Source: Escherichia coli (GTDB lineage Bacteria > Pseudomonadota > Gammaproteobacteria > Enterobacterales > Enterobacteriaceae). From it: a DNA stretch of 64,000 nucleotides. Location of the stretch: assembly GCF_003334355.1 (NCBI RefSeq), contig NZ_QOWP01000007.1; one strand, 5' to 3'. The translations under genes were made by a program, and so were the position numbers. The notes under the pieces were generated by a model. The model saw nothing but the letters and a program-made list of their open reading frames with translations. It was not told where the DNA came from and did no database searches. This document shows positions 3,694 through 10,290 of the stretch, piece by piece (position 1 is the first letter of the stretch; each line of letters begins with the position of its first letter).

Positions 3694-4062
3694 CTATACC
3701 CCAAAGCTTTCGCCACAGCCACATTCATTCTGGGCTTTAGGGTTGTGAAATTTGAATATCTGATTAAGTCCTTCACGAACGAAATCGACTTCCGTGCCAT
3801 CAATAAACGGCATCGCTTGCAGCGGGACAAACAGCTTCGCGCCGTCGTGTTCAAACAGCAGATCGTCTTTGTCCGGCTCGCTAACACTGTCGAGCACATA
3901 GCCAAAGCCCGCGCAGCCCGTTTGCTTCACGCCTAAGCGCACGCCGACCATACCTGGCTGCTTTGCCACCAGCTCGCGGATGTGTATCGCCGCTGCGGGT
4001 GTCAACGTTAAGCCTTGCCAGGCGAAATCTTGTGGGTTAAAGGTTCCTGAATGCATGTCCAT
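3694..4062 (-). CDS. sufA: Fe-S cluster A-type carrier SufA
   Basis: 122-aa ORF with C-terminal CGCGESF motif. Confidence 0.95.
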
Positions 4063-4105
4063 CGATTTACCTCACTTCATCGCTTTCAGCGTATAACAGC
4101 ATGTT

Positions 4106-4124
4106 AGTGATAATGATTATCAGT
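4106..4124. promoter_or_regulatory. Fur box in the suf operon promoter
   Basis: TGATAATGATTATCA at 4108-4122, about 45 bp upstream of the sufA start; close to the Fur consensus GATAATGATAATCATTATC. Confidence 0.6.
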
Positions 4125-4337
4125 TCAACCCAGCAAACGCAGGGGCTTTACCGTAAAACATGCTTTTTGCCTGCTTTTAATAAGCATAGACCCTGATGTG
4201 TGGGTTAACAGGCACGCTAAGAATTAGGTATCTCATTGTTAGATAATGGTTATTATCTAAGGAGCATTAAGGCTGTGATGAAAAAGAAAAAGTTGTATTG
4301 AAAATGACTATTTAAGAGATAGGTAAAAAAGTGCAGC

Positions 4338-4456
4338 GTTCAGAAATAAGAAAACCCTTAAGTCTGTGCGACACAGGCTTAAGGGTTTCTACCCCATCCG
4401 GCGCTTATCTCCGGCACTCTCAGTGGCTTAGCTCTTGAAGGGGCGATAAGAATAAT
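4338..4456 (-). ncRNA. Candidate small RNA region (rydB maps between sufA and ydiH in K-12); contains a strong hairpin at 4345-4375
   Basis: Stem CCCTTAAG...CTTAAGGG flanked by A-run and T-run at 4345-4380. Position recalled, not verified by alignment; exact ends uncertain. Confidence 0.3.
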
Positions 4457-4609
4457 CTCATAAAGCTAACCCGCCGTTTTAACACAAACTGCGATTAGTA
4501 TTATTTTTGAACAATATCAGGCGGTAGATAAGCAGTATTAAGAAGGTCATCGAACCTGGACGGAGGTTAATCCAGGTCGATTTGGCGAACTTGCGGCATT
4601 AAGTCAGGA

Positions 4610-4798
4610 TCAATGCACGCCCAGACGCCAGGCAAAGTAGATTTCTTCTTTTAATTCAGCAGAAGAGAGAGTAAGCAGGTCAGCAAATTCAAGTTCTAGT
4701 TGTTTCAGACGTTTGAGATATTGGGCAGGTGAAAGATTGCTCTGGTCACGGCGTAAAAATTCAATGGCCAGCTGGGTGGGATCAAGTTGAGTAGACAT
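4610..4798 (-). CDS. ydiH: Small uncharacterized protein YdiH
   Basis: 62 aa from MSTQLDPTQ...; longer upstream extension in ORF track is probably not translated. Confidence 0.7.
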   Translation of the reverse strand: MSTQLDPTQLAIEFLRRDQSNLSPAQYLKRLKQLELEFADLLTLSSAELKEEIYFAWRLGVH

Positions 4799-4897: not shown

Positions 4898-5308
4898 TCA
4901 CAAAATGGCGGTCGTCAATCGTGACGAACAGCACAAACGCCCTTTCTCATCGAAGATTTCAATCTGCCAGACCTGGTGACGCGAACCGAGATGCAACGGT
5001 TTGCATACGCCGCGCACCCGCCCTTCTCGTGCCGAGCGGACGTGGTTAGCATTGATTTCCAGACCAACCACTTTTTGCTCACCTTCGGTACATAAATAAC
5101 CGGCAACGGAACCGATACTTTCGGCCAGTACCACGGATGCTCCTCCATGCAGCAACCCGAAAGGCTGCTTTGTCCGCGAGTCTACTGGCATTGTCGCTTC
5201 AAGGGTGTCATCACCAATATGTTCAAAGCGAATATCCAGGAACCCCACCATGTTTCCTTCACCCATAGCATTCAGTGCTTCCAGGGTGATTTTCCGTTTC
5301 CATATCAT
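4898..5308 (-). CDS. menI: 1,4-dihydroxy-2-naphthoyl-CoA hydrolase (hotdog thioesterase)
   Basis: 136-aa ORF; ATGA overlap with the upstream ydiJ stop. Confidence 0.9.
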   Translation of the reverse strand: MIWKRKITLEALNAMGEGNMVGFLDIRFEHIGDDTLEATMPVDSRTKQPFGLLHGGASVVLAESIGSVAGYLCTEGEQKVVGLEINANHVRSAREGRVRGVCKPLHLGSRHQVWQIEIFDEKGRLCCSSRLTTAIL

Positions 5309-10047: not shown

Positions 10048-10152
10048 ACGGTTATAAATCAACATATTGATTTATAAGCATGGAAATCCCCTGAGTGAAA
10101 CAACGAATTGCTGTGTGTAGTCTTTGCCCATCTCCCACGATGGGCTTTTTTT
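10048..10152 (+). ncRNA. rprA: RprA small regulatory RNA (RpoS translation activator)
   Basis: ACGGTTATAAATCAACATATTGATTTATAAGCATGGAAATCCCCTGAGTGAAACAACGAATTGCTGTGTGTAGTCTTTGCCCATCTCCCACGATGGGCTTTTTTT matches the recalled RprA sequence and ends in its terminator hairpin and T-run. Confidence 0.9.
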
Positions 10153-10290
10153 TAACATTTTTCCGCATCGCTACCTCGCCCCTCACTCTTTCCAATAATG
10201 TTGCACAAGATACTGTGACTCTCTTCAAGCCGTCAGCAGGCTGATAATGTTATTTATATTTTATTGTTTATTTCATGCAGCCATTACACG

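Follow-up and report, generated by a model that had tools for sequence, protein, structure and literature searches.

The hairpin between sufA and ydiH in Escherichia coli is very probably the Rho-independent terminator of the primary rydB transcript

Results

The window (the whole 64,000-nt stretch of E. coli DNA analysed here) carries sufA, rydB, ydiH and menI on the minus strand, with the small RNA gene rydB in the spacer between sufA and ydiH (Table 1). This spacer, 4063-4609, is 100% identical to that of E. coli K-12 MG1655, and window positions were converted to NC_000913.3 coordinates by adding 1760324. No terminator-like hairpin was found between ydiH and rydB by terminator scan or repeat search. 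On the other side, a CTAT-N7-ATAG-N7-CAAT motif lies between rydB and sufA and is kept beside the hairpin described below in Escherichia and in several Citrobacter copies in which sufA is adjacent (e.g. L026, L080, L084 and L085). This motif, at 4297-4322, probably corresponds to the distal OxyR site of the suf promoter that Lee et al. 2004 reportedly described.

The strain is not K-12. Compared over 31 kb, the window is 98.7-99.4% identical to MG1655, and a 2,985-bp insertion (30116-33100) splits selO; the genes that this insertion carries are given in Table 1 together with the other RNA elements of the window that scored above the Rfam gathering threshold.

Table 1. Positions of the features discussed, in window coordinates
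Feature	Position	Strand	Basis or remark
sufA CDS	3694..4062	-	Downstream of rydB, same strand
CTAT-N7-ATAG-N7-CAAT motif	4297..4322	-	Sequence; 20 nt downstream of the rydB terminator
U-rich tract UUUUCUUAUUUCU	4342..4354	-	Sequence; 3´ end of the 104-nt primary transcript at 4342
Probable terminator stem, 3´ arm CACAGACUUAAGGGUUU	4352..4368	-	Repeat search, fold, covariation
Probable terminator loop UCG	4369..4371	-	Repeat search, fold
Probable terminator stem, 5´ arm AAACCCUUAAGCCUGUG	4372..4388	-	Repeat search, fold, sequence; mature RydB 3´ end (4384/4382) inside
Mature abundant RydB, 61-64 nt, ending ...GGGGUAGAAACC(CU)	4384..4446	-	RF00118; Term-seq end 4384; 64-nt form 4382
rydB GenBank feature, b4430, 68 nt	4389..4456	-	NC_000913.3 1764713-1764780
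rydB transcription start site	4445..4446	-	Class I TSS RVS_(I)-1762793/1762794, U00096.2 (PMC4681348 supplement)
rydB promoter, putative extended -10 TGaGATTAT	4452..4460	-	TG 4460-4459, hexamer GATTAT 4457-4452; read from sequence
ydiH CDS	4610..4798	-	Upstream of rydB, same strand
menI CDS	4898-5308	-	
RprA	10048-10155	+	Rfam, above gathering score
ISL3-family transposase	30174-31451	-	In the selO insertion
Putative metal-efflux permease, SO_0444/SaoE type	31464-32498	-	Below family cut-off
ArsR/SmtB-type regulator	32598-32924	+	In the selO insertion
STnc540 (ihfA 3´ region)	37824-37982	-	Rfam, above gathering score
Phe leader	41822-41946	-	Rfam, above gathering score
ES036/CssrF	58890-58932	+	Rfam, above gathering score

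The spacer contains a strong hairpin. The sequence CCCTTAAGTCTGTGCGACACAGGCTTAAGGG, which reads on the plus strand as CCCTTAAG-TCTGTG-CGA-CACAGG-CTTAAGGG, has a single exact match in the 64-kb window, at 4355-4385 on the plus strand, and none of 100 shuffled sequences matched. The original prediction had given this string correctly but had placed it at 4345-4375, 10 nt to the left of its true position, which still falls inside the 4338-4456 interval that had been singled out. The flanks agree with the A-run on one side and the TTTCT on the other that had been described, with GAAAA at the 5´ side and TTTCT at the 3´ side of the plus strand. When the flanking AAA and TTT are included, the inverted repeat extends over 4352-4388, with two 17-nt arms (4352-4368 and 4372-4388) that are 94% complementary and a 3-nt loop. 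As 50-nt folds, the minus strand gave -22.0 kcal/mol (z = -6.6) and the plus strand -26.2 kcal/mol (z = -7.4), and for neither strand was any of 200 shuffled sequences as stable, in line with the strength claimed for the hairpin. Ranked among 37-nt single hairpins of the 64-kb window, it came third on the plus and 13th on the minus strand; in that scan, the minus-strand stem (-20 kcal/mol) was weaker than that of the plus strand (-24.5 kcal/mol). The lone stem mismatch on the minus strand is a C.A (C4377/A4363) that becomes a U.G wobble on the plus strand, and it is because of this single transition-type mismatch that the plus-strand stem is the more stable one in K-12.

On the minus strand, three G-C pairs of the 17-bp stem, which has this one mismatch, form its base beside the U tract. 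The first three U of the tract can pair with AAA 4388-4386, and six of the first eight nt after the core stem are T. A consensus terminator scan of the window did not report the hairpin, most likely because of the C.A mismatch on the minus strand and the presence of only four T on the plus strand, and this negative result is uninformative. No annotated feature lies beneath the hairpin match among the E. coli records listed. The hairpin is present in 5,421 of 5,426 complete E. coli genomes, at a median of one place per genome; this copy number and the single match in the window are not those of a repeated extragenic palindrome (REP), which occurs in many copies per genome.

The Rfam model for rydB (RF00118) matched the minus strand from 4444 to 4384 over its full length (model positions 1-61) with 81.6 bits, compared to a gathering score of 50. 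The match covers 4384-4444 and not the hairpin itself, and the hairpin 5´ arm starts where the match ends, the final two matched bases being the first two C of CCCUUAAG. Together with the position of b4430, this confirms that rydB maps to the sufA-ydiH spacer on the minus strand, as had been proposed in the original prediction, and the proposed Rfam scan thus gave its match in the expected spacer, abutting the hairpin. A permissive-E-value Rfam scan returned chance matches only, rydB aside, and ARAGORN detected nothing tRNA-like.

The start of rydB was mapped by Romero et al. (2014), who aligned their reads to U00096.2 (PMC4681348); the shift of +1976 from U00096.2 to NC_000913.3 was checked with the rprA TSS (1768396 versus 1770372, corresponding to window position 10048). 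The mapped start is 6-7 nt downstream of the GATTAT hexamer, and class-A rydB copies from several genera retain a TGAGAnnAT motif 5´ of the core. TGaGATTAT at 4452-4460 is therefore our candidate for an extended -10 promoter of rydB, as read from the sequence. The GenBank feature begins within the -10 hexamer, preceding the mapped start by 10-11 nt, and stops 5 nt short of the Term-seq end given below, with the terminator omitted. In E. coli genomes annotated with PGAP, this place has no feature. Given a start at 4445/4446 and a core that ends at 4384, both on the strand of the hairpin, the hairpin stands at the end of a transcription unit. When the full-length RydB sequence was folded, the core and the hairpin formed two independent domains.

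Two rydB forms have been reported from RNA-seq (PMC4681348), 1762690-1762794 (104 nt) and 1762730-1762794 (64 nt) in U00096.2 coordinates. In the window, their 3´ ends correspond to 4342, the end of the U tract, and to 4382, the ends of the 104-nt form having been taken from inspection of RNA-seq coverage and not from single-molecule 3´ mapping. Term-seq data (Adams et al., 2021; PMC7815308) give a single rydB 3´ end, 1764708(-), with 2.17 and 4.14 million reads. This end corresponds to window position 4384, two bases inside the hairpin 5´ arm, and its read number is more than 10-fold that of the lpp end in the same table; for lpp, position 51 of the 61-mer lies within the terminator U tract, which confirmed our reading of the table. 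No end was called in the table on either strand at 1764600-1764699, an interval that includes the U tract, and none was called for ydiH or sufA. For the U tract, then, RNA-seq coverage places the end of the 104-nt form at 4342, whereas Term-seq calls only 4384. The expectation that the hairpin forms the 3´ end of rydB consequently held for the 104-nt form but not for the abundant RydB, which ends at 4384/4382, at the foot of the hairpin. This mature end is 8-10 nt past the closing helix of the core (GGGG 4395-4392) and 2-4 nt into the hairpin 5´ arm. On northern blots, RydB reportedly has a size of roughly 60 nt.

In Salmonella, rydB has been annotated at 105 nt (PMC2515195), a length that is reached only when both hairpin and U tract are counted. 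A Rho-independent terminator is assigned to rydB by RepRanger (PMC12306157). Elsewhere in the window, the Term-seq 3´ end of ihfA (window ~37,900; NC_000913.3 1795230) falls within its terminator hairpin, in the 5´ arm or the loop, AAAAAGGCCGC|UCUGCGGCCUUUU (PMC7815308), and 3´ ends within terminator stems are therefore not unique to rydB.

For a comparative analysis, one genome per species was scanned with the invariant rydB core, yielding 120 loci, and the hairpin was aligned for 26 distinct orthologues from Escherichia, Salmonella, Citrobacter, Leclercia and Silvania. The hairpin follows the core by 9-10 nt in the 26 orthologues of these five genera. This spacing is unchanged in most Citrobacter, where ydiH lies at a distance of 2.1 kb, and in Salmonella diarizonae L093 and C. 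braakii L028, where sufA is separated by ~2 kb, indicating that the hairpin belongs to rydB and not to ydiH or sufA. Pairing is found in 92% of the alignment cells and collapses to 20-56% when the partner columns are slid by 1-3 positions. Changes on both sides occur in five of 14 pairs, all among the six upper pairs (28 cells), and a covariation score this high was reached in none of 500 column shuffles. The lower eight pairs, CCCUUAAG/CUUAAGGG, are invariant or show G.U variants only, while the upper stem and both flanks vary, and in 12 of the 26 the ninth pair is mismatched.

The two strands differ in what follows the stem. On the rydB strand, six or seven of the first 8 nt are T in all 26 orthologues; on the opposite strand the count is 2-5, mostly two, with four in Escherichia. 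Comparing G.U pairs with C.A mismatches gave a divided answer, with L021, L031, L050 and L018 favouring the rydB strand and the widespread C.A at the ninth pair favouring the other. It is thus the T-run asymmetry, not this test, that settles the polarity of the hairpin. The proposal that the hairpin can terminate transcription on either strand was not supported by this comparison, given that the T-run is conserved on the rydB strand only (26/26) and that no plus-strand 3´ end was called.

Beyond these orthologues, a terminator-like hairpin was present within 110 nt in 85 of 116 rydB-family copies from Enterobacterales, in most cases beginning 6-23 nt behind it. Between genera these terminators show no homology, and it is the presence of a terminator directly behind the core that is conserved rather than its sequence. 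The closing helix of the core is supported by covariation, with compensatory changes at five pairs among 44 family members. We also noted that the variable middle hairpin of the core covaries, and that the junctions and the hairpin CCGGAGAUAAGCGCCGG are invariant.

We considered whether the core and hairpin might form a riboswitch-like leader and rejected this, as the same-strand downstream ORFs of 115 copies fell into many unrelated clusters and a candidate antiterminator pairing was not conserved in Leclercia and Silvania. Since the downstream genes are unrelated, the family copies resemble RNA genes in their own right, with a fold that is compact and conserved.

Discussion

Collectively, these data make it very probable that the primary rydB transcript is terminated on the minus strand by the hairpin at 4352-4388 and the adjoining U tract (4354-4342), which together act as a Rho-independent (intrinsic) terminator. 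It has the sequence-level features by which an intrinsic terminator is defined, a stable stem-loop with a G+C-rich base and a U tract behind it, positioned where a transcription unit of that strand ends. Transcription would begin at 4445/4446 from the putative extended -10 promoter and proceed through the 61-nt conserved core, after which the hairpin would form in the nascent RNA and polymerase would stop in the U tract and release a primary transcript of ~100-105 nt. Subsequent removal of the hairpin would yield the very abundant 61-64-nt RydB, the 3´ end of which is mapped. This is the most likely origin of the short form, because no terminator-like feature precedes 4384 and the RNA is too short for Rho. 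Removal might proceed by an endonucleolytic cut in the stem, or by 3´-exonucleolytic trimming that stalls a few nt 3´ of the folded core.

The first of these routes raises the possibility that the hairpin is a maturation signal as well as a terminator, with an endonuclease that is specific for double strands or guided by structure, such as RNase III, cutting the 5´ arm at C4384/U4382 and thereby setting the mature end. Such a role would add to the terminator function and would not replace it, and we regard it as a tentative suggestion that is less likely to be right than wrong. The mature end does lie inside the stem, 13 pairs below the loop, and both the conservation of the lower 8 bp in the 26 orthologues, against a varying upper stem and varying flanks, and the recurrent mismatch at the ninth pair would fit a nuclease site. 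However, an identical end would result if an exonuclease came to a halt 8-10 nt 3´ of the closing helix, unrelated terminators stand behind the same core in other genera, and the ihfA 3´ end also maps within a terminator stem. In addition, neither RydB nor a nuclease site in it appears in the portion of the supplements to the Salmonella RNase E map that was consulted. Somewhat more speculative still is the broader idea that RydB is not a conventional base-pairing sRNA and instead is a very abundant, compact 61-nt RNA that is matured like a stable RNA by purposeful cleavage of its terminator hairpin, for which the lower stem and ninth-pair mismatch would provide nuclease recognition. If this were true, Escherichia, Salmonella, Citrobacter, Leclercia and Silvania would share the hairpin as a conserved cassette dedicated to maturation.

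The hairpin could also stop transcription on the plus strand, antisense to rydB, as a bidirectional terminator. The plus-strand hairpin is perfect, with U.G in place of C.A, and has a folding energy of -24.5 to -26.2 kcal/mol; the stem is followed by UUUCU in Escherichia, and the downstream gene in Salmonella is convergent (PMC2515195). Nonetheless, we consider this improbable. T makes up 4/8 of the plus-strand tail in Escherichia and 2/8 in most orthologues, sufA, rydB, ydiH and menI are without exception minus-strand genes, Term-seq called no plus-strand 3´ end here, and the lineage-specific G.U pairs on the rydB strand of L021, L031 and L050 would be C.A mismatches on the plus strand. The combination expected of a bidirectional terminator, a U tract on both strands and convergent transcription, is thus not what is found at this locus.

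About equally improbable is that the transcript is released at 4384 itself and that the hairpin serves only as a back-up, terminating or insulating against read-through from rydB and ydiH. The sole Term-seq peak, with its millions of reads, is at this position, and ydiH transcripts would need this hairpin since there is no ydiH-rydB terminator. Yet the closing helix upstream of 4384 is only 4-5 bp and is followed by UAGAAACC without a U tract, and there is a 104-nt form that shares the start site. An RNA of ~60 nt is also too short for Rho loading, which counts against release at this position. The least likely reading, to which we give almost no weight, is that the palindrome is a protein-binding site in the DNA of the suf regulatory region, as the invariant half-sites CCCTTAAG/CTTAAGGG and an OxyR-like motif 20-45 bp away might suggest, since the hairpin travels with rydB and not with sufA (Salmonella diarizonae and C. 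braakii, with sufA 2 kb away), the upper stem covaries as RNA pairing would, and the T-run is conserved on one strand only, which a DNA site does not explain.

An intrinsic terminator of rydB is not a new element as such. The gene (RF00118; b4430; synonyms tpe7 and IS082) is the same in locus, strand and sequence, the hairpin being the structure immediately 3´ of it. It has been in databases since 2001, and the 104- and 105-nt versions listed for E. coli (PMC4681348) and Salmonella (PMC2515195) already include the hairpin. The Rfam model and the 68-nt GenBank feature stop at the first two hairpin bases or before them, and the hairpin is consequently unannotated in RefSeq.

The terminators of Hfq-dependent sRNAs such as RprA, also encoded in the window, are likewise stable stem-loops with a U-rich tract that end a short, independent RNA gene. 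RprA, however, keeps its terminator hairpin and U tail in the mature RNA and in the Rfam model, whereas the dominant RydB, ending at 4384/4382, is without both and so lacks the retained 3´ module of Hfq-type sRNAs. In the precursors of stable RNAs (4.5S, M1, tmRNA and tRNA operons), intrinsic terminators are removed during 3´ maturation. As in these precursors, the abundant RydB ends upstream of the terminator, a few nt past the closing helix. By analogy, the rydB terminator most resembles the trimmed terminators of stable-RNA precursors, a likeness of behaviour and not a claim of membership. The absence of terminator and U tail in mature RydB is consistent with its reported Hfq independence (PMC3933206) and with its enrichment with Hfq of only 2.5-fold (PMC2515195). 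These features provide a modest hint that RydB might act as a structured RNA rather than as a typical Hfq-bound sRNA.

The significance of the hairpin is small beyond tidying the annotation, with two practical points. In cloning, deletion or over-expression of rydB, the primary transcript should be considered to be ~105 nt and the abundant RNA 61-64 nt, without terminator or U tail. In the design of suf promoter fusions, the strong terminator located 20 nt ahead of the distal suf regulatory site should be taken into account. From its position, the terminator would stop transcription from the strong rydB promoter ~20 nt before the OxyR-type suf site and would thereby insulate the regulated sufABCDSE operon. 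With no hairpin between ydiH and rydB, read-through from ydiH would be expected to end at the rydB hairpin too.

Finally, we noted that at least 12 genomes (Pantoea, Rouxiella, Raoultella, Sodalis, Serratia sp. and Enterobacter sp.) each contain two or three copies of the rydB core. Within the set L003-L122, examples are L013/L014, L023/L024, L039/L040, L043/L044, L045/L046, L057/L058, L096/L097 and L114/L115. Each family copy apparently comes with a separate -10-like element, and in many a separate terminator-like hairpin is present as well. The core also occurs in a divergent subgroup, ACCUUGUGAAGAGCUACCGUCAC...GAUGCCGGAGAUAAGCGCCGGAAGG, represented by L039 (position 21), L070, L105 (position 7308) and L114 (position 2126); the three divergent copies scanned, those in L039, L105 and L114, did not reach the Rfam rydB gathering score. 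The divergent copy in L114 is located ~470 nt downstream of a match to isrN.
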